A stretch of 64,000 nt of DNA, taken from Candidatus Magasanikiibacteriota bacterium (GTDB lineage: Bacteria; Patescibacteriota; Patescibacteriia; Magasanikbacterales; UBA922). A program made the translations under genes and the position numbers. The notes beneath the pieces are model-generated. The model was not told where the DNA came from. It ran no database searches and was given only the letters and a program-made list of their open reading frames with translations. The stretch covers positions 210,635 to 274,634 of the forward strand of contig DMXO01000002.1 in NCBI GenBank assembly GCA_003482855.1, read 5' to 3'. Below, piece by piece: positions 4,201-29,934 of this stretch; the stretch's first letter is position 1; each line of letters starts with the position of its first letter.

Positions 4201-4396
4201 CTATAACACAGAGTAATATCATTGGGGGTTCGGGGTGGCTACTGTTTGAGCGTCACTGCAAATAAGATGGTATATAATTCTTTGGTATAGCGAGTTTAGC
4301 CACCCCGACACTTTTTGTTACTTTTTGGTGACAAAAAGTAAGCAAGAGGGTGATCACATAAAATACCAATATCCTAATATCCAATATCTTAATATT

Positions 4397-6394
4397 TTAA
4401 AAAGCTCCTTCACTCATCCCTATAATATCATCCTTTCCATCAAAATCCACGTCCACTGCCCTCACATCTATTCCTGGATTACCAAAACTGCTATATGCAG
4501 TAAATGCACTATATTTTTCTTTGCCAGACGCATCAAATATCTTGATAATCGGCGCGCCACCTTTGCCTTTGCCAATAATAACTTCATCTACCCCATCTCC
4601 GTCTACATCTCCTGCCGCGATATGCACGCCACCATAAAATGTAGATTCAAATGCGTTGAAATGATGTTGTTGTTCAAAACTATAATTATATATAGATACA
4701 GACGATCCACCGCTCAGGGCTCCGACAAACAAATAATTGCGTCGCGATATACCTCCATTGTCTATATCCCCCACTGCCAAACTATAACCCCCGTTATATT
4801 GTTCACCAAATGGATAAAAATCATGGCGTACTTTGCGTCCATGACGTGAATATACGCGAATCGGCTCTTTGTATCCTTCGCTTGGTGCTACATACAATTC
4901 AAGATTTTGATCACCATCCAGATCCCCGAGAGCTACATGAAGTGATCCTTCATATTGCGCACCGTACGGATATACATTCATATAGAGCTGTCCATCATCA
5001 CGCCATACTTGTATGCGGTTATGCTTGACAACAATCAATTCACGCTTACCATTGGCATCGAGATCTGTATGCGCGACCTGATAGCCACCTTTTTGTCCAT
5101 CTTCAAATACAAAAAAACCGTTACGCACACGAGAGCTGTCTGGTCTAAAAAATCGTAAAAATGATCCATTGGTAAATAGTACATCGCTCAATGTCTCAAA
5201 TGTTTTGAGCAGTATAAGTCCATCTTTGCCGGGTACCATAACTTCAGACACAATTGACCCGTCATTTATACCTTCATCTTGAGTGCCATGAATTTTTTCA
5301 TATTCACCACCAAGATCCAAAACTTTTGCCTGATTTGTGCTGTTGACAATAGACACGCCATGTTCAAAATTGCGTTTCCATACATCTTCTTTGTATGTCG
5401 TATATGATTGCTGCGATGTGGCAGGAGCTATTGGTTCACCCAAATCTACATCATATTCATCATACCACCATGTCTGGCCATGATCTGTGTCACCATGGTC
5501 GAAGGAAAAATAAATATTATTTTCAAGCAAACTACTTGTAATGCCAAAGCGCATTTTTTTGTAATCATCATTATTTCCATTATTATTGGTATTACTATTG
5601 AAAATGATAATCTGCGGTTTTTTATTATCTTTTTTGATGCGTACTACATTATTCATAATGGTAGACCATGAGCCATCCCCTTCCCATGGTGTAGGAAATG
5701 TCTCAAACATGCGACCATTCACATACTGCTGAAAATCTGTGTGAGAACTACCATTCATAATAATATAATCAGTGTTCAAGTGGTCCTGCGCATATTTGAG
5801 TAAATATTGTGTACGTTCACGCCAGAGAGGGTCTGCCTCAGATGGAATATCCTTTTGCCCGTCATTATTGAGATCTATATTCCCCCCATTTGCCCATGAA
5901 ATATTTTCTGATATCATATCAAAAAATATCCCGTCTACATGCGACAAAGACATAATATAGGTATTGCAAAATTCAACAAGATATTTACTCCACGCATGAT
6001 CCATATTTATGTTATAAATACCATCCCACGTAGACACTTGTCTACCAGACGAATCACGAAGCCACCACGTATTGTCCACATTCATATGTCTAAATACGTT
6101 ATCTGAAGACCAATACGTATAGTTATAACTTTGTGAAGGAATATATGCCAATATAATAATATCTGGATTTTGTTTCTTGATAGAATCTATGGTAGATTGT
6201 CGCGCTGCTATTTGAGCAGGCGTGAGTATGAGCACATCATAACGAGCAAAATCGGCTGCGTTACCATCAGAAATCGCATTGAGATAATAATTGGCAATAT
6301 AAGGAGCATCCTGTGTATATACAAAACTACCAGCAAAGAAGCTAGCCATGATAATTATCGCAATAATAGTTTTTGCACTACACAAAATTTTCAT
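4397..6394 (-). CDS. secreted protein: N-terminal TIM-barrel glycoside-hydrolase-like domain plus C-terminal FG-GAP/VCBS repeats (likely start MKILCSAKTIIAIIIMASFFAG at 6394)
   Basis: Signal-peptide-like N-term; C-terminal repeated DGDG/DxDxDG motifs (DGDGVDEVIIGKGKGG, DLDGDQNLELYV, DIDNGGISRRNYLFVGALSGG) typical of FG-GAP. GH-like assignment tentative. Confidence 0.6.
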   Translation of the reverse strand: MKILCSAKTIIAIIIMASFFAGSFVYTQDAPYIANYYLNAISDGNAADFARYDVLILTPAQIAARQSTIDSIKKQNPDIIILAYIPSQSYNYTYWSSDNVFRHMNVDNTWWLRDSSGRQVSTWDGIYNINMDHAWSKYLVEFCNTYIMSLSHVDGIFFDMISENISWANGGNIDLNNDGQKDIPSEADPLWRERTQYLLKYAQDHLNTDYIIMNGSSHTDFQQYVNGRMFETFPTPWEGDGSWSTIMNNVVRIKKDNKKPQIIIFNSNTNNNGNNDDYKKMRFGITSSLLENNIYFSFDHGDTDHGQTWWYDEYDVDLGEPIAPATSQQSYTTYKEDVWKRNFEHGVSIVNSTNQAKVLDLGGEYEKIHGTQDEGINDGSIVSEVMVPGKDGLILLKTFETLSDVLFTNGSFLRFFRPDSSRVRNGFFVFEDGQKGGYQVAHTDLDANGKRELIVVKHNRIQVWRDDGQLYMNVYPYGAQYEGSLHVALGDLDGDQNLELYVAPSEGYKEPIRVYSRHGRKVRHDFYPFGEQYNGGYSLAVGDIDNGGISRRNYLFVGALSGGSSVSIYNYSFEQQHHFNAFESTFYGGVHIAAGDVDGDGVDEVIIGKGKGGAPIIKIFDASGKEKYSAFTAYSSFGNPGIDVRAVDVDFDGKDDIIGMSEGAF

Positions 6395-7559
6395 AGATAG
6401 ATACCAATTGTGTATAATATGCCTCTCCATTATTTTGTTCTTGCACTTGTGTCTGAAGATCTCTGCCAACTTTCACAAGTTCACGATCATCTGCGTTGTA
6501 CCACATCTCAATAGTCTGAGAAAATTCGTCTACATTTGCGGGATCACATAGCATATGTTGTGGTAACATTTCTACCACTCCTCCAATTCGTGAAGCAACC
6601 ACTGGCTTGCCATACGCTTTTGCTTCGAGAATGCTCAGGGGATAATTTTCATACCACTGCGAAGGCACGACAACCACACGCGCATTACACATAATTGTAT
6701 CCAATTCTTTGCCTGATGTATATCCAACATATACTATATTGGGGATAGCCAAATCTTCTAGTTGTTTTTTCAAAGGGCCATCTCCCACGACCGTGTATGT
6801 GATATGTGGTGTCTTTTTTGCGATTTCGGGAAGCAAAAGTACACCTTTCTCTTGACCCAATCTGCCAATATATAGCACCCCACGTCCTGGTACTACGCCG
6901 ACTTCTTGTGGATTAAAATCAAATGGATTATGTATAACATGTATGTCGCGTTCAAACCCGCATGATACAAATTTTTCTTTCAAAAAATTACTCGGACTAA
7001 TATATGTATCTATCGCACGTGCCCACTTCTTCCATGCCCTCACACAAGCTTCACCTGTGGCAATAATACTTTCACCACCATGTTCCATACAATTATTGAG
7101 CAAACATCGATAATAATGTGACCCACAACAACTTTCATCGATTTTACCGTGATGAAACAAATTATAATTAGGACTTATCATCTTGTAATCATGCAATGTC
7201 ATAACGCATGGGATACCTTTTTCTTGTACAACGTCGAGCAAAGAAAAAGAAAGCTGATGATATATATTATGAATATGTATAACCTCAGGTCCAAAATCTT
7301 CAACCAATTTCCTAAACTTATTTTTTGCGTCTACATTATATATAGATTTCAATGCATCTCGCACCCTACCAAGGCCTCTCACCTGTGAGTAATCTATGAA
7401 GTCAATAAAATAATCATTCTCAATAGTATTTTCAGGATGTTTCATGCCAAAAATTTGAACCTCATGGCCATGTTCCTCAAGCAATTTCTTTGTAGCAAAA
7501 ACAACGCGCTCTGCCCCGCCACGGATGTACCAATATTTGTTGACGAGTAAAACCTTCAT
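6378..7559 (-). CDS. glycosyltransferase family 4 (GT4)
   Basis: MKVLLVNKYWYIRGGAERVVFATKKLLEEHGHEVQIFG; C-terminal GT4 sugar-donor binding region. Confidence 0.85.
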   Translation of the reverse strand: MKVLLVNKYWYIRGGAERVVFATKKLLEEHGHEVQIFGMKHPENTIENDYFIDFIDYSQVRGLGRVRDALKSIYNVDAKNKFRKLVEDFGPEVIHIHNIYHQLSFSLLDVVQEKGIPCVMTLHDYKMISPNYNLFHHGKIDESCCGSHYYRCLLNNCMEHGGESIIATGEACVRAWKKWARAIDTYISPSNFLKEKFVSCGFERDIHVIHNPFDFNPQEVGVVPGRGVLYIGRLGQEKGVLLLPEIAKKTPHITYTVVGDGPLKKQLEDLAIPNIVYVGYTSGKELDTIMCNARVVVVPSQWYENYPLSILEAKAYGKPVVASRIGGVVEMLPQHMLCDPANVDEFSQTIEMWYNADDRELVKVGRDLQTQVQEQNNGEAYYTQLVSIYENFV

Positions 7560-8633: not shown

Positions 8634-10127
8634 CTATTCCCCTTCCAATATATTCCCCTTATGCTTTTCTCTATACCAACAAAGTGCGACGATCCCTACA
8701 ATTGTCCAATAATAAAACATAAGTGTACGGAATTCAAAATACGGGCCAAAAAAACCAATACACATTACCCCTGCAGTCAGACCAACAAGCCCTTCGGCAA
8801 TGACATGTTCAAACACGTCGTGTACACTCTTGCGAACTACACAGGCCATGCGCATGATAGTAACAAATATACCAAACCACACGATGAGTCCTATCGTACC
8901 AAACTCTCCCCATATGCTCATCCAATTATTATCAATCTGTCCATATAGATTCTGAATGCCAAACGGCATATGCAGACGGTCATACATATCGGTATGCAGT
9001 AGTGCAGCTGCGACACCTCCGCCGTACTGTCCTGGTCCCACGCCAAATAATGGATACTGTGATACGACCAAACGAGGCGTATTGATAATAAAAAATATGC
9101 GCCCATATCCATCATAGCTATCACGCCACGCTTGAAAACTAAAAGCTTCAAACACACGCTCGCCAAATGATTGTGTCGGTTTCTCAGTCACTGATGTGAC
9201 ATTGGTCTTCACTAATGCAAACCCGACCAAATATATGAGTACGATACTTACAAAAATTCCAAGCCCGACTGCCACGCGTCTATCGCGTCGTAATGCAAGT
9301 CCTATGACTGCGATACCTACAAAAGCCGCAATCCAACTCGCGCGTGATGATGTGAGGAAGAGTACCACAAGCCCGGCAAACCCCGCCACCATATACCAAA
9401 TTTTACGAGTAGATTTATCTCGGGTAAAAATCCACGGGAAAAACATCACAAGGCCAAGCGCGACAAAACTCCCGAGTTGATCATATCTTCCCATGGTTGC
9501 AAATACACGGCTTCCTGTTGTCCAAAACTGTTCAAGTCCACCAAGAAGTGCTGCATTGCCTACCATGACCGTACGTGTAGAAAACAAATACTGATCCAGA
9601 TAACCACCTGACACATATTGAATAAGGCCAAATACAATTTCAACCACCATCATGGTACCACCAATCATTACCATGTTTTTCAATATTTCTTTGTCATATT
9701 GGATCCACAGTATGACAAAGAGCATCAATACAAAACGCAGTATCTGTCGCAATCCAAATGCCCATATCCATGGGCTATACCAATTCACAATGAGTGACAA
9801 ACACGCGACAAGGACAAAGCCAATAAACCATGCATTGAGTGGCTGTCGCGGTAATAATTTCTTCTTTCTACGGACAAACGATATCAGACTTCCACCAACC
9901 AAACCATACATGATAACTTCAGGGATATACTTCACATACGCGAAATAATCTATAGGTGTATACATGAGTACTAGACTTTCCAAAGGAAACCAAACAAGGA
10001 GACCATAAATGATCCACTCACTTTTCCTTATGGTAAATGTAAACAAAAAGCCCAAAACAAATATACAACATAACAAAAAAAGACCAATAAAATTGTTCGG
10101 TAAATAAGCTAACATCGTATCAATCAT
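8634..10127 (-). CDS. O-antigen ligase/polymerase (Wzy-like) polytopic membrane protein
   Basis: About 12 TM helices; TSSRASWIAAFVGIAVIGLAL segment resembles Wzy_C/O-antigen ligase signature region. Confidence 0.7.
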   Translation of the reverse strand: MIDTMLAYLPNNFIGLFLLCCIFVLGFLFTFTIRKSEWIIYGLLVWFPLESLVLMYTPIDYFAYVKYIPEVIMYGLVGGSLISFVRRKKKLLPRQPLNAWFIGFVLVACLSLIVNWYSPWIWAFGLRQILRFVLMLFVILWIQYDKEILKNMVMIGGTMMVVEIVFGLIQYVSGGYLDQYLFSTRTVMVGNAALLGGLEQFWTTGSRVFATMGRYDQLGSFVALGLVMFFPWIFTRDKSTRKIWYMVAGFAGLVVLFLTSSRASWIAAFVGIAVIGLALRRDRRVAVGLGIFVSIVLIYLVGFALVKTNVTSVTEKPTQSFGERVFEAFSFQAWRDSYDGYGRIFFIINTPRLVVSQYPLFGVGPGQYGGGVAAALLHTDMYDRLHMPFGIQNLYGQIDNNWMSIWGEFGTIGLIVWFGIFVTIMRMACVVRKSVHDVFEHVIAEGLVGLTAGVMCIGFFGPYFEFRTLMFYYWTIVGIVALCWYREKHKGNILEGE

Positions 10128-10231
10128 AGTACCTATATATTATCATATAGTAAGCATTTTTCAAAGATCAAATCTAGACCAGGCACGAGACACTTATTAA
10201 AACAAAAAACTCCATTTTATAGGAGCCATTT

Positions 10232-10345
10232 TAAATTCACCTAACTGTCCAATTCCCAATTCACCTAATAAAATTCAAATGTATAAATTGAAAATTATAT
10301 TATTGGACATTTTATTAGGTAATTGGAAATTAGGTGAATTAGAAA
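10232..10345. repeat. imperfect inverted repeat (aattcacctaa...ttaggtgaatt arms) at left edge of high-GC island
   Basis: aattcacctaactgtccaattcccaattcacctaataaaat ... attttattaggtaattggaaattaggtgaatt. Confidence 0.5.
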
Positions 10346-10581
10346 TTTTTATAGTAACCCTCAACACCTTCATAAACTTTTATAAAAGTGTAGTTGGGTT
10401 GGGATTCGGCGCGCAGTCGAATCCCTTCCCTCCTTTCCGCCTCCCGAGGGAGACGATGCGCCTGGACAGTGCCGCCAGGCTCGGCGTGGTTCACTCCCCG
10501 TGATCAGCTCTGCGCGAGCCGCGGATCATCATGAACGTGAATGTTTTCGACGCGGCGGCGGAGATAGAGGGTCGAGACGAC

Positions 10582-12573
10582 CTAGTTCTCCGGGGCGCAG
10601 TACACGCCCTCGTCGTTCCAACCGGTGCAGCCCACGGGGCCGGCGGGGTCGGCCACGCACCAGGGCGCCGTGTAGCAGCAGGAGGTGGCCGCCGTCGGGT
10701 CCGTGGTCGGCGTACCGCCGATCCACATCTCCTTCACGGGCGAGGCCATGCACGCCGCGAACAGCGGGTAGGTCGGCGCGGGCGTCGGCGTGTACACGCA
10801 GGTCATGTTGACGCAGGTGTCGATCGTGGCGCCGTTGCCGTCGTCGCAGTTCGCGTCGATCAGGCACTGGACGCAGGTCGCGTCGCCGCCACCGAGGTCC
10901 TGGCAGACGCCGGTCGTGCAGAGCGGCCCGCTGCTGCAGACGCCGGCCGTGCAGGTGTCGGCCGTGCAGGCATCGCCGTCGTCGCACTCGCCGTCGGCGG
11001 TGCAGTCCGGCACGCAGGCCGGGTCCGCCACGCAGTCGGGGTCGAGGCAGTCGGCGAGGCCGTCGGCGTCGTTGTCGAACGTGTCGGAGCAGGCGGCCTC
11101 GGTGTCGCAGTAGCCCGGGGCGCACATGGTGCAGCCCTGGACGTCGCGGCACTCCATGACGGCTCCGAGCGGACCGCACTCCTCCTCGTCAGCCCACAGG
11201 CCGACCTGCGTGCCCGGGATGAGCGTGCAGATGCGGTGCGTGAGGATGGCGGGGCCGGTGGTCTGCTCGACCTCGACGCAGAGCCCCTTGACCGTGACGC
11301 CGGCCTCGATCTCCTGCGCGGTGAACGTGCAGAAGTCGAGCGTGCAGATCGCGTCCGCGGTGCACACGCCGTTGCCGTCGGGCAGCTCGCAGAGCGAGCC
11401 CGTGGCCATCGGGTCGTGGCTGACGGCGCCGTTGGCCGAGTCGCACGCGTCGAGCGTGCAGGGGTTATCGTCGTCGGTGTCGACGTCGATGCCGACGCAG
11501 AGGCCGGCGACCGAGCAGGCGTCCTGCAGGGTGCAGGCGTCGCCGTCGTCGCAGATCAGGCTCGGCTGCGGAACGTGGGTGACGACACCCTCGATGTCGC
11601 ACGCGTCGAGCGTGCAGTCGTTGAGGTCGTCGATGTCCGACTTGGGCTCCGCCTCGCAGAGGCCGACGATGCACATGTCGTTCATGGTGCAGGCGTCGCC
11701 GTCGTCGCAGGCGAGCCCGTCCATGGCCTCGGTGTCGAAGTCGCAGCCCGTGACCGAGTCGCACGTGTCGACCGTGCAGTCGTTCTCGTCGTCGCAGACG
11801 AGCGACTCGGACTCGCACCAGCCCGTGACGAGGTTGCACGTGTTCACCGTGCAGGCGTCCGCGTCGGTGCAGTCCGTGTTCGACTCGCACTCGACGAGCT
11901 CGCGGCAGTAGCCGACCGCGGCCGGGGTGAGCGCCTCGGGGTTGATGGCGCACTCCTGCTCGTGCCCGTTGGGGCTCACGGGACAGGGGTCCACGATCGG
12001 GACGAGGTGGCAGTTGCCATCCACGTCCAGGTGGGTCACCACGGAGAAGCGGCCGACGTACACCTCGAGCTCGCCCGTGGCCGGGTTGTACCAGAGGTCG
12101 CCGTCCTCGGCCGTGTCGCACGACACGAGGTAGCGGGGGCCGATCGGGCCGTAGCAGTCGGAGCCCGTGATGCCCGGCTGGAACGTGAGCGCCGACCGCG
12201 TGGTCATGGTGCCGTCGCCGTTGTCGATGATGCCGAACTCCTCGTTGAGGTTGATCTGCGCCGTGTTGTAGCGCTCCACGATCGCCTCGTACGAGAGGGG
12301 CTCGACGTTGACGCTGGCGGGGTAGGCCGAGCAGCCCGTGTTGCGGTCGACCATCGGGTTCTCCGAGATCGGGCCGCAGTAGGTGTAGCCCTGGGGCGAC
12401 ACCGCGAACACGTGCTGCACGCTGACCTCGTCGGTCACGCTGGCGTACCACCAGGTCGAGTCGACCTGGAGCTGGTTGGTGGGCGCCTCCTTGTCGCCCA
12501 GGTTCGGGTTGTTGGCCTCGCAGCCGATGATGCCGATGACGCCGAGCACGAACAGAACCGTCGCCTTGCGCAT
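10582..12573 (-). CDS. lipoprotein with Cys/Asp-rich tandem repeats (Myxococcus-type cysteine-rich-repeat-like)
   Basis: Lipoprotein signal MRKATVLFVLGVIGIIGC. Repeated units CDDGDACTxxDxC and DxNDCTxDxCD. SD GGGAGG 7 nt upstream of ATG. Confidence 0.65.
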   Translation of the reverse strand: MRKATVLFVLGVIGIIGCEANNPNLGDKEAPTNQLQVDSTWWYASVTDEVSVQHVFAVSPQGYTYCGPISENPMVDRNTGCSAYPASVNVEPLSYEAIVERYNTAQINLNEEFGIIDNGDGTMTTRSALTFQPGITGSDCYGPIGPRYLVSCDTAEDGDLWYNPATGELEVYVGRFSVVTHLDVDGNCHLVPIVDPCPVSPNGHEQECAINPEALTPAAVGYCRELVECESNTDCTDADACTVNTCNLVTGWCESESLVCDDENDCTVDTCDSVTGCDFDTEAMDGLACDDGDACTMNDMCIVGLCEAEPKSDIDDLNDCTLDACDIEGVVTHVPQPSLICDDGDACTLQDACSVAGLCVGIDVDTDDDNPCTLDACDSANGAVSHDPMATGSLCELPDGNGVCTADAICTLDFCTFTAQEIEAGVTVKGLCVEVEQTTGPAILTHRICTLIPGTQVGLWADEEECGPLGAVMECRDVQGCTMCAPGYCDTEAACSDTFDNDADGLADCLDPDCVADPACVPDCTADGECDDGDACTADTCTAGVCSSGPLCTTGVCQDLGGGDATCVQCLIDANCDDGNGATIDTCVNMTCVYTPTPAPTYPLFAACMASPVKEMWIGGTPTTDPTAATSCCYTAPWCVADPAGPVGCTGWNDEGVYCAPEN

Positions 12574-12872
12574 GGGTTAACCTCCCGTGTTGCGCCGTTG
12601 CACGACCTCTCCCTCCCCAGACCTGGGGACAATGCCCTGGCTAAGGGGCGGGAGATAGAAAGCACTAGCCACTGACCTGAACAACTTTGTTATTCACTCA
12701 GTGGCTAGCACTTTCAAAAATACACTATATTGGATTGAAAGGTACTTCACCACCAAACTTATACAGTTTGATGATGACGATGCCTTTCCCCTCGTCCCCA
12801 TTCAGACACGCGCTTGGTAGCGACGCGTCCGAACAGCGGGGACGAGGGAAGGCGGAAGGACATGCGGCTCGA

Positions 12873-14147
12873 TCAGCCGCCGATGACGTCGGACCAGCCG
12901 AACCAGGTGGTGCCGCCGTTCTGCGAGCAGCCGTGGGCCGGATCGGCCTGGCACTCCGTGGCACCCACCGAGGTGGAGCCGCAGGTGACGACCTCGACCC
13001 ACATGCCGCTGGTGCAGCGGGCGAGCGAGGTGTTGCCCGTGGCCACGAAGTCGTAGCAGACCACGGCACCCTCGGTGCACTCGCTGGCCGTGACGGCCGG
13101 GGCGCAGTGCGCGAGGAGGCCCTGGTAGGGCTGGCACACGGTGCCCTCACCGCAGGGGTCGATCTCGACGCACGTGCCGTTGACCATGGTGGCCACGGTG
13201 CAGACGTTGCCGTCGGACTCGACGCACTGCGGGTCGCCCTCGATCACCTCGATGTGGTGGCAGCCGGAGGCCGCGTCGCACGTGTCGAAGGTGTCGTCGT
13301 TGGCGTCGTCGCAGGAGAGCGACGTGTTGGCGCAGTGGCCGTTGACCAGGCACTGGTCGAGCGTGCAGGCGTTGCTGTCGAAGCAGTCCTGGTTGCTCGT
13401 GCAGAGCTGGCGGCAGATGCCGACGTCGCACCACTGCGACTCGGGGTCACAGAGAGGCGCGAACTCGCACTCCTCGGTCTCCCAGTTGCACGTCGGGACG
13501 ACGCACGGGTCGGCCGACTCGCACGAGTTCAGGCACGCCGGCGGGAGCGACATGTGGCCGCAGTGGCCGGTGGCCTCGTCGCAGGAGTCCTGCGTGTTCG
13601 ACATGCCGTCGTCGCAGAACCCCACGTACACGGGGTTCCCGTTGACGTCGCAGAGGTCGGTCGTGCAGAGGCTGCCGTCGTTGGCGTCGCACACGCCGAC
13701 GTACTCCTCGACGCACACGCGCTCGCCGTTGTCGTCCGCCTTGCAGACGGACCGATAGAGCGGGTCGCTCGGGATGGGGCACGTGTAGGCGTAGCGCTTG
13801 ACGTTCCCCGTCATGTTGTCGCACACGTCGACCGTGCAGGGGTTGCCGTCATCGACGTTGGAGCACTCATGCTCCTTGATGACGCAGGCACCGAGCCAGC
13901 ACGCGAACGGCTCACCGCACTGCACCTCGTCGGTCGCGATGCACTCGCCGTTGGCGCACGTGCGGGTCTCGCAGGTGTCGGGATTCTCGGCGTAGCAGTC
14001 GGCCGACGTGAAGCACGTCAGCCCGACGTCGTCGGGGGTCGGCTCGCGCTGGACGGGCGGGGTCGTGGAGTTGTCGTCCTGGTTGAGGTACGGGTTGCCG
14101 TTGCAGGCCGCGAGGAACGCGAACACGAACAGGATGCTCTTCTTCAT
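12873..14147 (-). CDS. lipoprotein with Cys-rich repeats (paralogous architecture to 10582..12573)
   Basis: Lipobox MKKSILFVFAFLAAC. NPCTVDVCD / SLCTTDLCD / NACTLDQC repeats. SD GGAGAG upstream. Confidence 0.65.
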   Translation of the reverse strand: MKKSILFVFAFLAACNGNPYLNQDDNSTTPPVQREPTPDDVGLTCFTSADCYAENPDTCETRTCANGECIATDEVQCGEPFACWLGACVIKEHECSNVDDGNPCTVDVCDNMTGNVKRYAYTCPIPSDPLYRSVCKADDNGERVCVEEYVGVCDANDGSLCTTDLCDVNGNPVYVGFCDDGMSNTQDSCDEATGHCGHMSLPPACLNSCESADPCVVPTCNWETEECEFAPLCDPESQWCDVGICRQLCTSNQDCFDSNACTLDQCLVNGHCANTSLSCDDANDDTFDTCDAASGCHHIEVIEGDPQCVESDGNVCTVATMVNGTCVEIDPCGEGTVCQPYQGLLAHCAPAVTASECTEGAVVCYDFVATGNTSLARCTSGMWVEVVTCGSTSVGATECQADPAHGCSQNGGTTWFGWSDVIGG

Positions 14148-14224
14148 CTGGATCTCTCCGTCGGTTGGCCCGCACTCCGTGAGTCGGGCTCTGGTTCTTG
14201 TTCTCGATCTTCTTGCTTGAAGGA

Positions 14225-14833
14225 TCAGTACGCCCAGTACACTCCGGCGCCGGCTTCCTGGCGGTAGAGCGGGTCATCCCCGCCACCGAACCAGCCCGGC
14301 CCGAAAGTGTAGCGCGCCTCGAACCCGAAGTGTTCCCACGGTTGCCATCGCATGGCTACCGAGGCCACGAACGAGTTCACGACGTCGCTGTTCTGGGTCG
14401 TCGACATGCGGTCGTAGCCGATACCGGCGAGGCACTGGATCTTGTCCAGATGCGTCCGGTACGCGGCCTGGATCAGGCCCGTCATGAAGAGGGTGTCGAC
14501 GCCCTGCTCCATACCACCGGTCTCCACGCGCATGTAGCCGAAGTTCCCGAGGAACTCGAGACCGAAGTGCTGGGTCAGGGAGACCCAGCCCATGATCTGG
14601 AGCTTCGGGACTCCGGTCTGCACCTCGCCCGCGCCGCTGAAGTAACCCAGGAGGGCCACCTTGAAGCGGAACGAGTCGAGCTCGTGCGACATGGCGACCG
14701 ACTCGATCGCCGCGCGCGGGATGCGCGGGTCCGGGACCTGATACACGGTCGGCGCGGGCTGGGCCCGCACCGAGTTGGGGTTGAGGAACAGGACGAGGAA
14801 CAGGACGCTCAGGAACAGGTTCGCGCAACGCAT
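14225..14833 (-). CDS. outer-membrane beta-barrel protein (OmpA-like/OMP_b-brl), start at MRCANLFLSV...
   Basis: Signal peptide MRCANLFLSVLFLVLFLNPNSVRAQ, alternating hydrophobic beta-strand pattern, C-terminal aromatic (…GVYWAY), SD GGAGGGAG upstream. Confidence 0.55.
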   Translation of the reverse strand: MRCANLFLSVLFLVLFLNPNSVRAQPAPTVYQVPDPRIPRAAIESVAMSHELDSFRFKVALLGYFSGAGEVQTGVPKLQIMGWVSLTQHFGLEFLGNFGYMRVETGGMEQGVDTLFMTGLIQAAYRTHLDKIQCLAGIGYDRMSTTQNSDVVNSFVASVAMRWQPWEHFGFEARYTFGPGWFGGGDDPLYRQEAGAGVYWAY

Positions 14834-15059
14834 CGGACTCCCTCCGTCTGGGTGTGTTCGCAACTCGCGACTCTCGAAACGAAAGACTATAAATGTCCTT
14901 CCGCACTCCGACCCACAAGGCCGGAGATTGGAAATGTGTCTCCTAAGCACTCATACATATACAAAAAATACATTGTATATGCATACGTACTTAGGAAAAC
15001 ATTTGTAAAGAACAAAGGAATTCTTACCCTGTACCTTTATGGTACTAGGGTTATTCCCA

Positions 15060-15125
15060 TTTTCTGACAACATCTGATACAGATATTGTCACAAAGCGGG
15101 TGGGGTGGGGTATCGTCGTAAACAG
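15060..15125 (-). terminator. GC-rich hairpin (gcgggtggggtat/ataccccacccgc) downstream of 15201..16691 gene
   Basis: 13-bp stem, about 25-nt loop, followed on minus strand by TTTGTG; sits in AT-rich spacer inside island. Confidence 0.4.
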
Positions 15126-15200
15126 TCTCAAACTCATACCCCACCCGCAGATGTCCGTGGATCCTCCCGGTTCCTCGGACGTCGTGTCAAAATGCCCTGG

Positions 15201-16691
15201 TCACGGGCAGGTGGCGAGCACCCAGTTGCGGGCGTCGGCGCAGCGGCGGGGGTCGCCGTTGACCTGGCACACCATCTGGGTGTACTCGCTCTTGCCGCAC
15301 ACGATCGTGGCGGCGCCGGTCACGTCGCCCGCGAAGCACTCGACCGCCTTCGAGTCCTTCTCGATGTAGGTGCCCGAGCAGGTGCCCGAAGCGGTCGGGG
15401 CGGCGGCGCCACCAGTGGGGGCGGTCGGGGCGACGGGGGCGGTCTCGTGCACGATGCGGGTCGTGTGGCTGGTGCGGGTCACCGTGTTGTGCACGTTGAT
15501 CTCGCCCTCGGCCGTCACGTCGCCCGCCTTGACCTCACCGGCGCGCACGATGCCCGCCTTGACCTCACCGGCCTCGACCGTCTCGATCGTGACCGGGAAG
15601 GTGCGGGGCGCGGCCTCGGCGGCGAGGCGGGCGGCCTCGGCGGCGGCGGCGACCTTCTGGGAGAAAGCCGCGTCGTCACGGGCCGACTTCACGTCGTCGT
15701 TGCTCGGGTTGAGGGCCCAGAGCAGGAAGAACGTGAGGAGCGCCGCGCTCCCGATGATGCCGGCCATGATCCACCACGGCCGGCTCGCCTTCTCCGCGCG
15801 CTTGGCGTCGTCGTCGCGGACGATCGACGGGTTCAGAGCGAGGAGCTCCTTCACCGTCAGGTCGCCGACGATGGCGTTGCCGCCCGAGCGCCCACCGTTG
15901 GTGATGTTGTCGCGGAGGGCGACGAACACGGTGCGCTCCTTGGGCTCGGCGGAGACGACGGGGGCGACGACGGTCTGCGAGGGGCAGAGCTCCTTCATGA
16001 GCCGGAGGCTCGTGAGGAGGTCGTCCTTGCCCGCGGTGCGCGCGCGCTCGAGGTCCTCGGCGCTGATGGCCGGGACCGTCGTCGTGGTGTGCGCGTCGTC
16101 GTGGCCGTGGCCGTGGTGGCCGCCGTCGTTGGTCTCGCGCTGGGCGAGGACGTCGGCGACGCGCCGCTCGATCCCCTTGCGGGTGAGCGTGGTCATCGGC
16201 TTGCCGGTGCCACCGATCAGCACGAGCTGCTCGGGGTCCGACTCGTCGATGCCGAGCACGTGACCGGTGTTGATCGCGTGCTGCTCGGCGCGGGGGTTGA
16301 GCTCCGCCTGCTGGACCTGCGGACCGCCGAAGACCACGTTGGTCGTGCGGTTGCTGGCCAGGAAGGCGAGGAGGTCGCTGAGGCCGGGCTCGCTGGTGCG
16401 GGCCGAGGCCGGGCGGCGGGGCTCGTCGGTGGACGGCTGGCGGCGGGGCTCGGGCTCGCGGCGGGTGTCGGTGCGGGCCGAGGCCGGGCGGCGGGTGTCG
16501 GCGTTGCTGCCGCGGGTCCGCTCGTCCTTGCGCTTCTTGTTGCACCGCTCCTCGGTGTGCCCGGGCTTGCCGCAGTACGCGCAGGTGACCTGCTCGCGCT
16601 CGGTGGCGGGGGCCGCGTCGTCGGTGTGGGCGGCGGCGGTGTCGGTGGTGATCTCGGGGGCCTGGGTGCTGGGGTCGGTCGCGGTCGTCAT
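15201..16691 (-). CDS. membrane protein with N-terminal CCHC zinc knuckle, Arg/Pro-rich linker, single TM and repeat-containing Cys-bearing C-terminal domain
   Basis: CAYCGKPGHTEERC = CX2CX4HX4C. RRPASART duplicated. TM WWIMAGIIGSAALLTFFLLWAL. AGEVKAG x3 tandem. SD GGGAGAGAG upstream. Confidence 0.55.
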   Translation of the reverse strand: MTTATDPSTQAPEITTDTAAAHTDDAAPATEREQVTCAYCGKPGHTEERCNKKRKDERTRGSNADTRRPASARTDTRREPEPRRQPSTDEPRRPASARTSEPGLSDLLAFLASNRTTNVVFGGPQVQQAELNPRAEQHAINTGHVLGIDESDPEQLVLIGGTGKPMTTLTRKGIERRVADVLAQRETNDGGHHGHGHDDAHTTTTVPAISAEDLERARTAGKDDLLTSLRLMKELCPSQTVVAPVVSAEPKERTVFVALRDNITNGGRSGGNAIVGDLTVKELLALNPSIVRDDDAKRAEKASRPWWIMAGIIGSAALLTFFLLWALNPSNDDVKSARDDAAFSQKVAAAAEAARLAAEAAPRTFPVTIETVEAGEVKAGIVRAGEVKAGDVTAEGEINVHNTVTRTSHTTRIVHETAPVAPTAPTGGAAAPTASGTCSGTYIEKDSKAVECFAGDVTGAATIVCGKSEYTQMVCQVNGDPRRCADARNWVLATCP

Positions 16692-17063
16692 GGTACTCTC
16701 TCCCTAGTCCTGCCCCTGGTGGGGGCGCAGTGAAAGCGCGCCCCACGTTGGGGCTTTGGTAACCTACCGTAGGCCTCGCGACACACGTCGCGTGACCATA
16801 TCCGGATACTGTATATGATCATAGAGATCATAGCCTGTACCCGGATATGGTATTTTATTTTTTTGTAGCTATTTTGACACGAATTCTTGTAAAGAGCGAC
16901 ACTCACCCTATTTTAGGATGAACAGAAGATTATATCATATATTGTGTAGTTTGTCAAGAGATAAAGGCTCTATATTTTCCCTCGGGAGAACAGATATTTT
17001 TTGCTTAATATAGAGAAAAAAATGAAAAACAAAAAAGGCTTTATTGAGCCAATTTTGCTATCA

Positions 17064-17145
17064 CTCGAACACTTGAACACCTAAGCACTGGAGCACCAGG
17101 TCACTGAAGCATTTAAGCACTAGGACATTTAATTACTTAAACACC
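17064..17145. repeat. array of degenerate TAAGCAC/GAGCACC/TGAACACC ~9-bp units (intergenic motif family, copy A)
   Basis: cgaacacttgaacacctaagcactggagcaccaggtcactgaagcatttaagcactaggaca... Confidence 0.55.
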
Positions 17146-17202
17146 TATCATAATATGCTTCGGACTACAAAAACCATACAAATTATTTTTTTCTTCTGCA
17201 CT

Positions 17203-17265
17203 GCAACTCACCCCCGTCCCCTCTCTTAGTAAGAGAGGGGTGCCCCGAGTACTCGGGGTGGGGTG
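17203..17265. repeat. nested palindromic GC hairpins (aactcacccc…ggggtgagtt enclosing cccctctctt/aagagagggg and ccccgagtactcgggg)
   Basis: Direct reading; perfect 16-bp palindrome ccccgagtactcgggg inside larger inverted repeat. Confidence 0.5.
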
Positions 17266-17284
17266 AGTTACATAAAAAAAATAT

Positions 17285-17322
17285 AACAAAAAGCTCCCCG
17301 ATGATGAGAGCTTTTTTGTACT
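17285..17322 (-). terminator. rho-independent terminator of giant ORF
   Basis: Minus strand: aaaagctctcatcatcggggagctttttgtt immediately after stop. Confidence 0.5.
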
Positions 17323-17329
17323 AACCTGT

Positions 17330-20300
17330 TTATCTATTTCCACCACGTGGTCCACCACCCCGAGGACCGCCGCCTCCACCACCTTTTTTACGCCCGCCTT
17401 GTCCTTGTTGTCCTCTGGCATTATCAGGTCTATTGTCAGGACGCTGACCACGATCCTGTTGTCCAGATCTATTGTCACTACCTTGTTGACCCTGACGTCT
17501 ATCATTCCCTTTCTTTTCTCTTTGTCCCCTATCTCGATTACTTTCATCTGAGCCACCACTCCTATCATTGTTTCTATCTCTACCGCCATTGCGTCGATCT
17601 CTGCCATTTGGTCGTCCACTGTCTCTATTGTTTGATCTGTTTGCAGACCCTTCGCCAGCACCAAGACCGAGATCATCACGAACCTGTTCATCGAGCAACG
17701 AAGCTACATCTATAGACATACGCGTCTGCATATCACGCGCAATATCTCGAGCTTGTGTACGAATAGCATCTGTTGCTTTGCGTAATGATCTATCACCACT
17801 CTCTTGTCCTAATCTTCGCACCAGTTCAAGTGCGGCAAGTTGTTTAGTAGCTTGTTCAAAATCTACCTTGTTTGTCTCTCCACCACGCGCTACATCTGGC
17901 ATCTCAGTACTACCAAACAATAACTCACGCGCCTGATCTCCGTTCAAAGACATCTTACTTACATCAAAAGATAGAGACCCTTTATCTTTTTTCACCCCAA
18001 TAGATCCATACGAACCAAGATTGAAATACGTAGTATCTGGATTTGCTTCAGATGTATCTGAGCCGGTGCCTTCAGCACTACCTTGTGCATGTGCCGTGTC
18101 ATCATCCATTGCTTCTACATCATCTGTCTGCTCTGCTTCATCTTGTGTTTGTGCAGGTGGTTGTGTCTCTACTACAGGAGCAGGAGTAGTACCTGCATCC
18201 ACTCTCGACGTAGAAGTTGAAGTAGTATCTCCCTCTCCAGCGGTAGGAACTTGTTCTCCTTGTCTTGCGCCCTTACGTTCGTACGCAGGACGAGGAGCAT
18301 CCTTCATACCACGAGACACATCTTCGAGTACAGGTCGTTCTCGTGTGGCAAAATATAGAGCTCCTGCTGCGAGCGCACCTCCACCAGCCACAGCATTGAG
18401 CATGGCAAGTCTACCATATGAAACATCAAACGATCGTCCATCTTCCATACCAAGTCTGACACCCTTGCCATCTGGTGTAGGCTCTGCATCTGTAGCACCA
18501 TCTACATGTATATTTGCTTCTTCGCCAGTATTGGTATTACGTACGGGTATATCTGCGCCACTACCAGTCACACGTGGATCTGCCACTGGCTCTACACGCG
18601 GTTCACGCGCGCGAGCTGCTGCCAATTCTTCAAGACGTTGCTGCGCATCTTCAGCCTGTGCTATCTGTGCCAAAGCAAGAGATTTACGATCAAGATCTCC
18701 GGTAGTAGGAGCATACTCATCAGCATCTCCTGTAGTACGCATACCACTGGCAATAAATCTATCTGGACTGCCACCGGTGCTTGTCTCGTTCATACCCATA
18801 TAGACAATTGGTCTACCTGGTTCTGCACGAAGTGGTGTCCTGCCACCTGGTTGATTATCAAACAATTTTACATTATCTGCTAAATAATCATCTCTGTTGG
18901 CATCATGCTGAAGTGCAGAACCGAGGCGTCGGATGAGATCACCACTACGACCACCTGCTGGCTGGTCAATAACCTGCGCTTTGTATTCTGCAAGGAAATC
19001 TGCAAGCGCCTTGTCTGTATCCTGCGGTATACCATCGGGAAATAATTTACCCAAAGATACACGATTGAATCCTTGACTCTGCAAAAATCTCAGTGCCTCG
19101 TCTGTATGCCCTGTCTTCATCATTTCTCCGACCATAGTGAGATCACGTTCGCGTTCAAAATGTAAAATCCATTGTGGATCACGAAACTTTGCCTCGGGGA
19201 ATAATGTATCTTCGCTACCTGTACCATGATCTGTGGCAGACTCAAGTACTGATCGCATAGCATCGGCATTGCCAAGACTCGGGTACGCGGTAACCCACGC
19301 ATCCATTTCTTTTGCTGCCGCAGGTGATAAATGAAATTCTTTTATGATATCGAGACGATCTATATCCCAACGAGCTGACTCGGGCACTGGCGGTACTTCT
19401 ATTGTCTCTGCTCGCGGAGTGGGCTCTCCTGATGGTGGTGCATCTACATCTCTGCCTCCATGTGCACCCACATCTGGTGATGTGTCGTGTGCATGATCTG
19501 CTACTTGAGCGCCTGTACCCGCTGCTGTTCCTGTTTCTTCTGGGATTCTTATGCCTAATTTTTCAAATGCCCATGCTCCAATGTCTTTGCTAAAATAGCC
19601 AAGACCAGCACCAATTACGCCACCGACAACCATACCTTTGAGAGCTCCTGCATGGCGTTTGATGAAGCCACCCTTATCTTTTAATTTATCAATAGTCTGT
19701 TGGCGTTCTGATTTGAGCAAGCTCACATCTGTATCAAGCTCTGCTAAAAGTGCTTCTGCTCCTGCATGTCTCAGGCGTTTGTCGTATGTCTCATATTCAA
19801 TACTGCGCAATACGTTACGTGCGCGCACTCGCAATAGTTCGCTATTGTTCAATAGACCAAGAGACATGGCAACACGAATATCTTTTGCGAGTTTCTGAAG
19901 ACCGGTATCACTTAGGCTTTCAGTCTTCTTGCTATCTATGCCAAGCGTAGACAATGCAAGCTCTGCTTCATCTATACGTCTCTCTACCTCTGTACGCATC
20001 TCTTCTTCACGTGCTCTAATATCTTTCATATTGCCCAGATGCGTTCCCAAATATGCACCCGCAAGTCCAAGCACTGCAGCGCGTACTTCTGGTGCAAAAC
20101 TTGATGCGACACCTATGGCTCCACCAGCAATAGCGCCCATTACTTTTTTGGCTAATTCATTTTGATCAAGTACCTCGCCATCGGCTTTGAATAATGATTG
20201 TACATCGCCACGCTTCAAAGCCATAGCTTTTTGTAATACGCGCATCATGCCAGGATTCTCACGAATGATATCTGCGACTGCGTCTACTGTCTGGCCACTA

Positions 20301-23300
20301 TACAACTCTGAAACCAAATGATCGAGACGAGCGTCCTGAGCTTCTTCGCGGGATATCTCTCCACGCGCAGCTCGAGTACGTGCATCGAGCGCTATTTCAC
20401 GACGCCCAGCTTGCAAAAGCAATATTGCCTGCGCGCGTATAGTATCATCATCCACTACTTCTGCACCAAGTCGAGCCTCATCGCGAGTAACTGCAGAAGA
20501 TGCATCTGTGCGACTCACACGATATGAAGCAGTGATGAGACCATCACTCATAAATACCGCAAGACGATCTATAAGTGTCTTGTCTCCACCTTGTGGAGTT
20601 CCATCAGCCCCTTTTGCCAGACCAAATCTTTGCATAAGTCTCTGACGAAATTCTGGCGTATTTCTAAATGTTTGTAATATTTCATCTTCTTTTTGTTTAA
20701 TTTTTTCTTCCACGTCTTGAGTACGATTGAGTGTGCGTTCACGTCCCGCTTTGGTGCTTCGCTCTGCTGCATACCAACCACCAATAGCTCCAGCTATGCC
20801 ACGCACTACCATCGCAGGAGCTTTGGCAACCGTGCCTGCAAGAGACGCGAGTCCGACTACAACAGCAGCAGGACCTACCGTGACTAAAGCATTTTTGGCT
20901 TTCTCCCACACTTTGGTCATGCCACCATGATAAAACTTTTTCATGTCTTGAAGTACATTGGTTTCTTCGCTCGCGACAAACAAACGGATACCATACATAG
21001 TCTCACGGTATCCTTGTTGCTTTTCCCAAAAACCAAGAAAATCTTCTGCATCTGTATACCCAGCACGACGAGCCTCTTCGCGGAGACGGCGTTCATCCAC
21101 ACCTTCTTGTCTAAATATATGTGTAATGTATTCTTCTACATCGCCTGCTGCAGTAGGATCTGTCATGAGATGCAATAATTTCGTGTATCTCTCACGGCCA
21201 ATTATTTCAATCAACACATGTGGGCGTATGTCTACTATGCCATGCTCAAACTCTTCGACAGTCCCCTCTGGCATATTGTTCAATCTGCGATGCAAATCTT
21301 CGGCTGCATTGTATTTGTCTGCAGCACTACTCCATACCGTACCGTCAGGAGTAACTTCAAACGTTTCTCCGTGGGATATATGCGCACGCATCACCTGTTG
21401 TCTATCTATGACTGAGTCAGTATAGAGCGGTTTGAGACCGCGCGCCTGCAGTTGATCCGGGCTTTCGATGCAAAAACGTTTGATACCAAACAGATGCTCA
21501 TCTGGCGATATAATGACGCACATACCTTGGTTACGCGCTTCTGCACATAGGGCGGATAACCTTCCAACGACTGTGGTGTCCAATGGTGCATCTGCGCTAC
21601 CAAAATTGCCCACGTCAAACCCAAACACGGAAGATAATACAGATGCACCTACACCTGGAGGCATACCATATTCACGCGCTAGGCGTGCCATCGTAGCTTC
21701 TGGCGTTTCAACAGCTGTCTCTGCCGAAGCACTATCTGACACTGCAGTACTTTCTCCTGTTGTCTCTTCAATATCAGGAAGTTCTATTCTCGGATGTGGT
21801 TTGCCTACTTCAGAAGATTTGGAAACCAAACCTCTCAAACGCTGGCCTATAGATTTTTTGCGTACAGCAAAATTGTATGGATCATCTGATACGAATTCAT
21901 ATCCTTTCGCAGGATAATACGTATTGTTACCATCTTCATCACGTGCCGCGTATACTCTTCCTGTATCCAATGCATATGAAAGATCAACAAAAGGAATATC
22001 TTCTTCTTCAGCACGTTTTATTGAATCTATTTGTTCTGAATTCAACAAATTTTGCATCATATCTTCAAACCACCAATCAGGATCTTCTGCTCCATCCAAT
22101 GATGATACATGGATCCTCGAAACATCCGGATGTTGTTCACGAGTATGTCTAAACTGCGCCAATAATCTGCGCATTTCTTCACGGCGCTCTGATGGTATAT
22201 ATGGCCTTCCATGCCAATCACGCCCTTCGTCATCCATGAGACTCACACACGCAAACATAGCATCAGCAAGACGTCCGAGTTCTTGCGCAGGATTCTCCTG
22301 CTCATGTGCTTCTACGTCAGCACCCTGCTCTGCTGGTGATTGTTCACTAGCCTGCACCACATCACGCACAGCAATTCTTCTATCGGACAAGACTACTACC
22401 TCTTTGCCTTGTGACCTCATTATATCTATATACTGCTGTACAACTTCGGCAGAAAACTCTGCAGGGATATCATTGATTTCAAATCCCAAAGTGCGCAATT
22501 CTTCTGGAGACATACTTTCCAAAGGGATATCTACATCGTAAACTCTTGAAGAATCCGCGGATGCAGAATCTGCAGAAGCGTCAGCATGACTTGCTTCATC
22601 CTCACGAGCTGTATCACCCTCTCCCTCACCATGCAGAGCTGGAAAATTATCACCGGATAATGCTTCATCACCTGTTCGTCGCGCAGGAAGATTATCCCTG
22701 CCATCAGGGATAGCTGGCAGATGATCTGACGGCAAAACATCCTCTGGAGCTTCGGCACTAGACTGTGTAGCTTTCACAGCAGAGGGACCAAATACTGATT
22801 CGGGATTACCACCAAGCACACGAACTAATTCGCGACTCGAGTCTTTGATAGTAGGATCAATATATAATGCAGTACCCCTCATTTCATGTTGTCCATTTGG
22901 TGATATATGTATTTCAGTAATATATCTATCATGTTCACCAATAGAACGATGTATAATACCTAGTAACCTCTGCGCATACTCAGGGCTCAACATGCCTTTT
23001 GGTTTGGTAAATTCACCCCAAGACTCCCTCAACCTGCCCCAATTTTTTGCAAATGTGTTTATTCTAAAACGAGGATCTATTTTCTGAAGTTCTTTTTCTG
23101 CAGGACCCAAAATATCCAACAATGCTTTTTCTACACCTACTGGTTCTTCGGGATTGGTAGATCGACCTGCGTTCGGGTCTGCCTGTTCTCCACCCGGAAC
23201 TGAAGCCTTTTCTTTTCTGCGTCTTTTTATTTTTTCTGATTCACCTTTTTTGGTTGCATCTGATGACTCAGTAATTTTTACTACTTCTATAGATAAATTA

Positions 23301-29404: not shown

Positions 29405-29795
29405 GGGGATGACAGGGTTCGATAGGTGGACCTATGTTATCTACTATATGCATGTCGAGGTGGTATACGATCCTCGTAAAACCCGTATACAATTCTCAAG
29501 TGCAAACTTGGTAAGTCGAGTGAAAAACGCAGTAGCGCAAGCTTTCCGCGTCCCAACATTCGCATCTGTAGTGGCCTAATAGGCCTGCTACCATCATTCC
29601 CATGATACTCGGTAATGGATGAATGGTGTCAACCTATCGAGTGTAGGATATATGTGCTTTCTGTCGCATATACTCGAAATAAATACAGGATCAGTTGATT
29701 GCTATTTTGCTGATTTCTAAGCAATCAATAAAACACCAAACCAGCTATACATGTAGATTGTGGTGGTAACCCATCTAGACCCGGGTTCAATTCCC
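29405..29795 (+). ncRNA. ssrA: tmRNA (ssrA)
   Basis: 5' GGGGATGACAGGGTTCGATAGG. 3' T-arm ccggg-ttcaatt-cccgg then acceptor catctcc pairing with 5' ggggatg incl. G3.U wobble. Internal ORF ending in stop inside ggcctaataggcc hairpin. CCA not encoded (..tccaCGA). Confidence 0.7.
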
Positions 29796-29934
29796 GGCAT
29801 CTCCACGAAAAGCGGTGCAACCGCTTTGAGTGACGCGTGATGAGCGAAGCGAATTTTACGCGTCACAACCAATAACTGCTTTTTCAACGGCACCGCCTCG
29901 TGGCGATGCCATAGTAAAATTAGCAAGGAGGATT

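Follow-up and report, generated by a model that had tools for sequence, protein, structure and literature searches.

Two cysteine-rich lipoprotein genes of very high GC content in a cell-surface glycan locus of a Candidatus Magasanikiibacteriota genome

What kind of proteins are encoded by two adjacent genes that use G or C at nearly every third codon position, and how could such genes persist in a chromosome of ~39% GC? We examined this question in a stretch of 64,000 nucleotides (hereafter, the window) from Candidatus Magasanikiibacteriota bacterium (assembly GCA_003482855.1, contig DMXO01000002.1, positions 210,635 to 274,634), an ultra-small groundwater bacterium that belongs to the candidate phyla radiation (CPR), and focused on two genes at 10582-14147, here named A and B. 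We found that A and B are members of two CPR lipoprotein families that are always located side by side. They are probably surface lipoproteins of a fast-evolving four-gene module in a glycan locus, with a GC bias that would be due to a persistent process acting in place.

Two lipoproteins of the Dicty_CTDC family

The two open reading frames (ORFs) proposed in the sequence-only reading were both present on the minus strand with ribosome-binding sites: the ATG of A and that of B are each preceded by a GGAGG-type Shine-Dalgarno (SD) site, 7-9 nt away. The genes and their lipoboxes are as follows (GC3, GC content at third codon positions).

10582..12573, minus strand: gene A, lipoprotein of 663 aa, GC3 0.98
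12520..12531, minus strand: lipobox of A, I15-I16-G17-C18, from the translation, its Cys aligned with the lipobox Cys of A-orthologues
12873..14147, minus strand: gene B, lipoprotein of 424 aa, GC3 0.97
14103..14114, minus strand: lipobox of B, L12-A13-A14-C15, from the translation and the family alignment

The IIGC and LAAC signals noticed before were likewise recovered. The N-termini of A, MRKATVLFVLGVIGIIGC (MRK...IIGC, Cys18), and of B, MKKSILFVFAFLAAC (MKK...LAAC, Cys15), each combine a basic n-region and a hydrophobic core with a lipobox that fits the pattern [LVI][ASTVI][GAS]C, and the lipobox Cys was kept in at least 90% of 20 aligned B-family relatives. The Cys content is 9.5% in A and 11.6% in B; once the lipobox Cys is discounted, 62 and 48 cysteines remain in the mature proteins, respectively, both even numbers, as expected if every Cys were paired. 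A and B are almost certainly extracytoplasmic, disulfide-rich proteins, in agreement with the earlier proposal. Neither lgt nor lspA was found by domain scans within the 64-kb window; Lgt is encoded by other CPR genomes (PMC4736985). Protein B has the same sequence as HAT03354.1, from a Candidatus Magasanikbacteria metagenome-assembled genome (MAG), and no exact copy of protein A was on record in the contig collection.

By sequence comparison, A and B are paralogues (BLASTP E = 5e-14, 31% identity), and their alignments revealed a common module, C..G.W.....CG....EC, located outside the repeats. The description of both as paralogous lipoproteins of short Cys/Asp-rich units was borne out, and all the peptides that had been quoted for them were present (in A, residues 264-277, NDCTVDTCDSVTGC, and 341-359, CDDGDACTLQDACSVAGLC; in B, residues 102-115, NPCTVDVCDNMTGN). 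The motif C[TS]x[DN]xC occurred 6 times in A and 3 times in B, versus 0.12 expected from 2000 shuffles, and the Asp-rich lead-in 11 and 5 times, versus 0.2-0.3 expected, so that the CTxDxC core with its lead-in was 25- to 50-fold above the shuffled expectation. The Cys-Cys gaps were mostly of 5-6 residues, and DNA repeat families were spaced 75/81/162 nt.

We detected the Pfam domain Dicty_CTDC (PF00526) in both proteins, with whole-protein scores of 55.9 bits for A and 41.6 bits for B (gathering cut-off, 27 bits) and with 6 repeat stretches in A and 2-3 in B; it also matched 20 out of 20 aligned B-family sequences. The absence of any Cys-repeat match together with the absence of periodicity had been named as grounds for abandoning the first reading, and these grounds do not apply, because PF00526 matches both proteins above the cut-off. 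The suggested membership in the Myxococcus cysteine-rich repeat family found no support: the NCBIfam search gave no match at E<=1 for A or B (nor for their neighbours C and D, described below), and TIGR04201 (Myxo_Cys_RPT) matched only the relative P0124, with 15.5 bits against a cut-off of 25 bits. There was also no NCBIfam match to TIGR02232 (myxo_disulf_rpt) for A and B, nor for two Myxococcota-type CCGDG..EECDDGN proteins used as control. The family of A and B is thus Dicty_CTDC, and the idea of a Myxococcus repeat is not confirmed as such.

PF00526 describes a repeat of Dictyostelium extracellular-matrix proteins, which are secreted and Cys-rich, and A and B resemble them in a unit of ~24 aa, DDxNxCTxDxCD..GC, that alternates with CDDGDACTxxDxC..G.C. 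Calcium binding by these Asp-rich motifs would be plausible. The closest non-CPR relatives of A were Dicty_CTDC arrays of ~570-1160 aa, most of the named ones from Myxococcota-type MAGs, with a best identity of 30-48% that was confined to the repeats. The Myxococcota-type arrays are mostly of ~1000 aa, with near-perfect tandem repeats in a native high-GC context, whereas in A and B, which are shorter, the units are degenerate and irregular; A and B also have a lipobox, family-specific non-repeat domains and a fixed pairing in CPR. No close relatives of A were found in 185,579 GTDB species genomes, and the JGI metagenomes gave one weak match.

Protein A comprises a signal peptide with the lipobox, a unique N-terminal domain (~25-225), a Dicty_CTDC hairpin region (~229-460), a C..G.W.....CG module (~449-475) and a Cys/Asp-rich C-terminal extension. 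In B, the LAAC lipobox is followed by a Thr/Pro/Asp linker, ~16 predicted disulfide-locked beta-hairpin modules and, at the C-terminus, a conserved C..G.W.....CG domain. The AlphaFold2 model of B, built with the family alignment as input (mean predicted local distance difference test, pLDDT, 76; predicted template modelling score, pTM, 0.35), is a flexible string of ~16 beta-hairpin modules, practically helix-free, and thus predicts small modules in place of the beta-solenoid or knottin fold suggested earlier. The claim of "tens of units" is about right for these structural modules, because the B model holds ~16 beta-hairpins, but it is generous for repeats recognisable in the sequence, given the Pfam counts. 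Foldseek against the PDB placed the cysteine-rich part of the Entamoeba histolytica Gal/GalNAc lectin heavy chain on top for the B model (E 3e-8, probability 1.0), followed by non-significant matches to TNFR cysteine-rich domains (E>=0.3) and follistatin. The B-family profile had no significant match among PDB sequences, and matches in the viral fold library were weak and fibre-like. For A, the model was confident only at residues 220-460, a part that resembles the B model; the N-terminal domain of A (pLDDT<50) and its C-terminal domain were uninformative.

A four-gene module beside Wzy_C

Genes A and B form a block together with two further genes, C and D, and the block lies between a Wzy_C gene and a giant ORF.

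8634..10127, minus strand: Wzy_C (O-antigen ligase/polymerase-like) membrane protein, directly downstream of A, with a host-type GC3 of 0.39
14225..14833, minus strand: gene C, 202 aa, beta-rich, with a cleavable signal peptide (SVRA/QP) and a C-terminal YWAY
15201..16691, minus strand: gene D, 496 aa, single-pass membrane protein, GC3 0.97
17330-24931, minus strand: giant ORF of 2533 aa, with a weak PP2C-like region (~263-520) and a Gly-rich C-terminus

Exhaustive searching by phmmer, with B as the query, recovered a set of lipoproteins of ~385-600 aa with a common lipobox, Cys skeleton and C-terminal module, and A-type orthologues aligned along their full length. On the contigs of B-type proteins the gene order was D-type, C-type, B, A, Wzy_C, glycosyltransferases and GHL15. 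Loci L096 and L098 contained the full order with D-, C-, B- and A-type genes, L099 had C, B, A and Wzy_C, L100 had B, A and Wzy_C, and L081 had a related arrangement; all five of these CPR loci keep Wzy_C as a neighbour of the module. Upstream of the module, both the window and its relatives encode a PP2C-like giant protein and a Wzz-like protein, and a DUF11/CLIPPER protein is also linked to it. The flanking proteins at these loci were 42-69% identical to those of the window, while A and B were 27-33% identical in each comparison, even in L099, the closest host relative. The A protein of the L098 type belongs to a cluster of 19 members.

The homologue search for C returned exact copies only, and that for D returned no homologue. 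Positional counterparts of C, alike in size and character, were present in L096, L098 and L099, and the counterparts of C and D by position share size, topology and marginal similarity only. Protein D has a long charged N-terminal part, a transmembrane segment at ~333-355 and a Cys-containing ectodomain of ~140 aa; its N-terminal CxxC-x4-H-x4-C "zinc knuckle" scored below the Pfam cut-offs. We also observed two Arg/Pro-rich internal repeats in D (16395-16431 and 16470-16506, 89% identical) and AGEVKAG-type repeats in its ectodomain. The alternating beta-strand-like segments and the C-terminal aromatic end (YWAY) of C are reminiscent of outer-membrane barrels, which would be odd if the cell had no outer membrane.

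The abrupt shift in composition at the block, and the fact that many assemblies break within it into short contigs, could be explained by an assembly or binning chimera. We found the block at 99-100% identity in ten contigs from other runs and assemblers (the differing Rifle contig contains Ns). An independent Logan contig, assembled from another run, repeats 7.8 kb at 100% identity across the right junction, including 1.7 kb of AT-rich host DNA, and the left junction (A beside Wzy_C) was reproduced by synteny in L099, L100, L096 and L098. Five unrelated assemblies from other studies join the same GC-rich genes to the same CPR neighbours, and the GC-rich genes are separated by AT-rich promoter stretches of host type. 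An artefact of assembly is therefore essentially excluded, and we give a chimera of either kind next to no weight.

The closest island that we found, L097, is a contig that holds island genes only, without host flank. Its B gene and that of the window encode proteins with 36% identity, and their third codon positions agree at 0.46, which is the value expected by chance. The B-A intergenic regions (window 12574-12872 and L097 1435-1741) are 0.61 identical, including a block of 84%, so that this linker is better conserved than the coding DNA beside it. Features common to both linkers were a terminator-like hairpin, the block AAAGGNATCGTCATCATCA, promoter-like blocks, a hairpin CACTAGCC...GGCTAGTG and a further hairpin with CCCC..G..TGGGGAG. 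Third positions at chance next to a conserved linker show that the locus shares descent, that its synonymous sites are saturated and that its coding DNA evolves faster than its regulatory DNA. In L096, two segments of 257 nt (5552-5808 and 6681-6937), located before the adjacent C-type and B-type genes and covering the promoter, the 5' untranslated region (5'UTR) and the first 19 codons of the signal peptide, are 95% identical, which points to duplication or gene conversion inside the island.

Some further observations concern the surroundings of the module. The giant ORF has a GC content of 0.62 at first codon positions and a GC3 of 0.29, and a syntenic PP2C-like protein with 34% identity is encoded in L098; an ORF of 184 aa (17137-17691), called in one assembly, overlaps its 3' end. 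In L082, a Candidatus Uhrbacteria contig, two regular-repeat Dicty_CTDC lipoproteins lie at 10001-13267 between mur genes, and not beside Wzy_C.

Base composition of the module and its possible origin

The window has ~39% GC, and the stretch 10396-16800 has 62-75%. This extreme GC content of A, B and their two neighbours is the most unusual property of the genes, and the sequence-only reading did not mention it. GC3 was 0.98 in A, 0.97 in B, 0.97 in D and 0.91 in the 202-aa gene C (0.85 in its longer ORF), versus 0.28-0.42 in 15 other genes of the window. Third-position A was 0.00 in A, B and D, and third-position T was depleted too. Codon positions 1 and 2 were GC-raised as well, as were the leaders and the 3' tail of A. 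At the left edge it falls sharply to 0.26 at ~10395, and the right edge lies at ~16800. The non-coding parts of the block were the following.

10396..10581, minus strand: GC-rich (0.65) tail that follows A and has the hairpin GGGATTCG...CGAATCCC at its end
12574..12872, minus strand: B-A intergenic region, with the hairpin CCCTCGTCCCC...GGGGACGAGGGG at ~12788-12848, an AT-rich core at ~12716-12790, a palindrome with 18-nt arms at 12658-12715 and then a GC-rich 5'UTR with the SD site
14834..15200, minus strand: D-C intergenic region, with an AT-rich core at ~14940-15090 (GC 0.25-0.38) and an imperfect palindrome at 14932-15004
16692..16957, minus strand: region upstream of D, with a promoter match, a palindrome with 26-nt arms at 16795-16851 and then a GC-rich leader

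The promoter match (16957..16929, minus strand) is a perfect 12/12 sigma-70 consensus with an extended -10 (TTGACA-17-TGnTATAAT), ~240 nt upstream of D. The transcription units are separated by cores of ~100-150 bp that are AT-rich like the host DNA (GC 0.23-0.40). The palindromes before A, C and D are each different and could serve as operators or RNA hairpins; a permissive Rfam scan of the block gave sub-threshold chance matches only, with no Rfam family in the B-A intergenic region.

The pooled GC3 of the island and of the flanking genes was as follows.

Window: island 0.97, flank 0.32
L099: island 0.79, flank 0.45
L100: island 0.86, flank 0.43
L096: island 0.93, flank 0.50
L081: island 0.78, flank 0.52
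L098: island 0.37, flank 0.13
L082: island 0.53, flank 0.39

The GC3 of the module was above that of the flank in 7 out of 7 loci examined; FYMINK residues were depleted at all seven, and GARP residues were raised at four only. The smaller rise in L082, away from Wzy_C, indicates that the GC tendency goes with the protein family and is not confined to a single locus. We found no description in the literature of such a gene-body-restricted GC anomaly in bacteria.

Three candidate causes were considered and rejected. Translational selection does not apply, since highly expressed host genes have a GC3 of ~0.3 and since UTRs and codon positions 1 and 2 are GC-raised as well. Amino-acid composition does not account for the high GC, as GC3 is the position affected. 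A diversity-generating retroelement was discarded because the scanned genes of the window contained no reverse transcriptase domain, no near-identical repeat pair was present in or around the block and T was depleted like A.

Since synonymous sites are saturated and the locus shares descent, the high GC3 must be maintained or regenerated and cannot be a leftover. We order the possible causes as a process acting in place, then recurrent replacement of alleles from an unsampled high-GC pool and, last, a single recent transfer. The extreme GC of the gene bodies would most likely come from a persistent GC-biased process in place, for which GC-biased gene conversion (gBGC) at a recombination hot spot under diversifying selection is a candidate. 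The more specific proposal of a long-lived process restricted to gene bodies, either a gBGC hot spot or a targeted mutator acting on a conserved CPR surface module, we regard as possible rather than probable. In eukaryotes, gBGC hot spots are accompanied by accelerated protein evolution, and a weak gBGC signal is present in recombining bacterial genes. The module resembles such hot spots in its very high GC3 combined with fast protein evolution, in its FYMINK depletion and in the local conversion or duplication seen in L096. We know of no bacterial case of such magnitude, with a GC3 of 0.97 versus 0.32 over four gene bodies and conserved across lineages.

A single recent transfer would make the block an island from a very high-GC donor, for example one of the Myxococcota, whose composition has not yet been ameliorated. 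The step in GC3 and the sharp edges would fit such an arrival, as would the codon usage, which is like that of natural high-GC bacteria, including residual GGT codons. Most of the named top non-CPR homologues of A come from Myxococcota-type MAGs, and the donor-type contig L083 (70% GC) bears a Dicty_CTDC gene in native composition. This origin is nevertheless improbable, given that at least five other CPR lineages, with flanking proteins only 42-69% identical to those of the window, have the module in this place. The architectures of A and B are CPR-specific in the lipobox, in the N-terminal domain of A and in the C-terminal module of B, with full-length alignment to CPR proteins only; likeness to non-CPR proteins stays within the repeats, and C and D had no homologues in the searches. 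The host-like AT-rich promoter cores, and intergenic DNA conserved with L097, would be unexpected in a fresh arrival. We also found no integrase or other mobility domain in the neighbouring genes, no flanking direct repeats and no adjacent tRNA gene (the nearest is 17 kb off). Among the features of a horizontally acquired island, then, we found an atypical composition, and neither mobility signatures nor a patchy presence with a recognisable donor. The recurrence of the module, the chance-level third positions relative to L097 and the conserved intergenic DNA make a single recent transfer unlikely, as they do a chimera.

Recurrent allele replacement would require a hypervariable surface-antigen cassette site, at which alleles are swapped by homologous recombination from an unsampled high-GC pool, with flanks and linkers as anchors. 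The fixed position by Wzy and Wzz agrees with such a site, and so does the combination of conserved non-coding linkers with extreme coding divergence even from L099. Island GC3 varies widely between lineages without tracking host GC3. In addition, L100 carries a phage-type gene with a Bro-N domain (4370-5182, GC3 0.31) between its A-orthologue and Wzy_C, which indicates that the edge of the module can accept insertions. We still rate cassette swapping as unlikely, since no high-GC genome with a D-C-B-A cassette was seen that could act as reservoir; four of the five B-type contigs show flanking genes that are lower in GC and CPR-type, and the fifth (L097) holds island genes only. Breakpoints would moreover be needed at every gene boundary to spare the AT-rich promoters, and to our knowledge there is no CPR genome of ~70% GC.

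Possible role at the cell surface and other genes of the window

Under the favoured explanation of a surface module with an in-place GC bias, A and B would be exported by Sec, and the lipobox Cys would anchor each of them by lipid to the outer face of the cytoplasmic membrane. After the anchor, a short Thr/Pro/Asp linker would lead to a stiff rod of disulfide-locked beta-hairpin modules (the CTxDxC units of Dicty_CTDC), with the C..G.W.....CG module at the distal end in B and ahead of the C-terminal extension in A. Together with D (single-pass membrane) and C (secreted, beta-rich) they would form the four-gene module, set in a cell-surface polysaccharide locus of the order Wzz - giant protein - D - C - B - A - Wzy_C - glycosyltransferases - GHL15, and they may be glycosylated by enzymes of the neighbouring genes. 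The most likely role would be that of a projecting cell-surface structure, in envelope architecture and in contact with or attachment to other cells. We infer this role because of the glycan-locus context, the adhesin-like build and the precedent of Cys-rich proteins in CPR Peribacteria (PMC4736985).

These Peribacteria proteins, from the Rifle aquifer, are extracellular proteins that have a signal peptide, are very rich in Cys and weakly resemble Myxococcus Cys-rich repeats; a role in attachment was proposed for them and variability from strain to strain was noted. They measure 1655 +/- 751 aa and are encoded by a 14-gene cluster in a genome of 58% GC (Anantharaman et al. 2016, PMC4736985). 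They form a descriptive group without a formal model, which A and B resemble in signal peptide, Cys content and type of aquifer, and from which they differ in size, with only 663 and 424 aa. A lipoprotein pair, a conserved four-gene module and a compositional anomaly are not described for them (PMC4736985).

The heavy chain of the Entamoeba Gal/GalNAc lectin (PDB 9gjc and others) is similar to A and B in being an extended string of disulfide-locked beta-hairpins at the cell surface, as predicted for A and B, and differs in being a eukaryotic membrane protein with another anchor and 16-18% identity. On the basis of the models, the likeness to this lectin and to the TNFR domains is an analogy of build, not family membership. 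The O-antigen and capsule loci of Gram-negatives are polymorphic compositional outliers at a fixed site, typically lower in GC than the genome, and encode enzymes of sugar pathways. The present locus is comparable in being a surface-determinant site by wzy/wzz with hypervariable content and deviating composition across lineages; in contrast to them, its GC-saturated outliers encode surface proteins, and the adjacent glycan genes are of normal composition.

An alternative role for A and B is that of structural or envelope-scaffold proteins, such as anchors or substrates for the Wzy_C/GT4/GHL15 glycan, instead of adhesins. The constant linkage of the module to Wzz, Wzy_C, glycosyltransferases, GHL15 and the DUF11/CLIPPER protein is compatible with a scaffold, as are the Thr/Pro-rich linkers after the lipobox. 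We consider a scaffold somewhat doubtful, since structural scaffolds are usually conserved, whereas A and B have changed more quickly than the promoters in front of them, which suggests an interface under diversifying selection, and since the nearest match in fold is to the stalk of an adhesin. A and B could also have both roles, and the module would be under diversifying selection.

Several points weigh against the favoured explanation as a whole. The in-place GC bias rests on seven loci and one close pair, of which L097 is without host flank. The sharp edges of the GC-rich block fit an insertion equally well, and because the nearest non-CPR relatives reside in natively high-GC genomes, an origin of the repeat module by transfer stays plausible. 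The term "module" itself rests on position and protein type, as C and D have no homologues and their counterparts are barely similar. The lectin match of the B model has a global TM-score of 0.14 and reflects similarity of local modules only, and the N-terminal domain of A cannot be modelled, so that no ligand can be named. The lipid-anchored, disulfide-stiffened rod is a prediction from models, and lipidation, disulfides, surface exposure, glycosylation and binding are likewise only predicted.

Cys-rich secreted repeat proteins were already known, including in CPR, and these particular proteins have been deposited as "hypothetical"; what is new here is the pair of lipoprotein families, the four-gene module beside Wzy_C and, above all, the GC saturation of gene bodies that persists across lineages. 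CPR are thought to live attached to other cells with an attachment machinery that is largely obscure, and the module offers a concrete and easily recognised candidate interface. Its composition is a natural experiment on the determinants of bacterial GC content, and the debate on gBGC, mutation and selection can be put to the test here, since time-series metagenomes of this population already exist. If the proposal of a long-lived process restricted to gene bodies is true, no stronger local bias in composition would have been described in any bacterium (~97% G+C at third positions in a genome of 39% GC), and it would tie the evolution of base composition to surface-antigen diversification in episymbionts.

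The remainder of the window is that of an ordinary CPR chromosome, with rpoB, L10, IF3, PheRS, Clp ATPase and tmRNA; the best identity of its rpoB was 79%, to Parcubacteria/Magasanikbacteria MAGs. We identified an archaeal-type phosphoenolpyruvate carboxylase at 47772-49226 on the minus strand (PF14010, E 1e-189). A set of NadA (fused to a cytidylyltransferase-like domain), NadC and NadB-like genes is located at 35103-39005 on the plus strand and, because of this gene set, the genome appears to encode de novo NAD synthesis. Finally, two RNA elements scored above the Rfam gathering threshold: a tmRNA with the tag peptide AVAQAFRVPTFASVVA (29405-29808, plus strand) and an L10 leader upstream of rplJ (32714-32885, minus strand).

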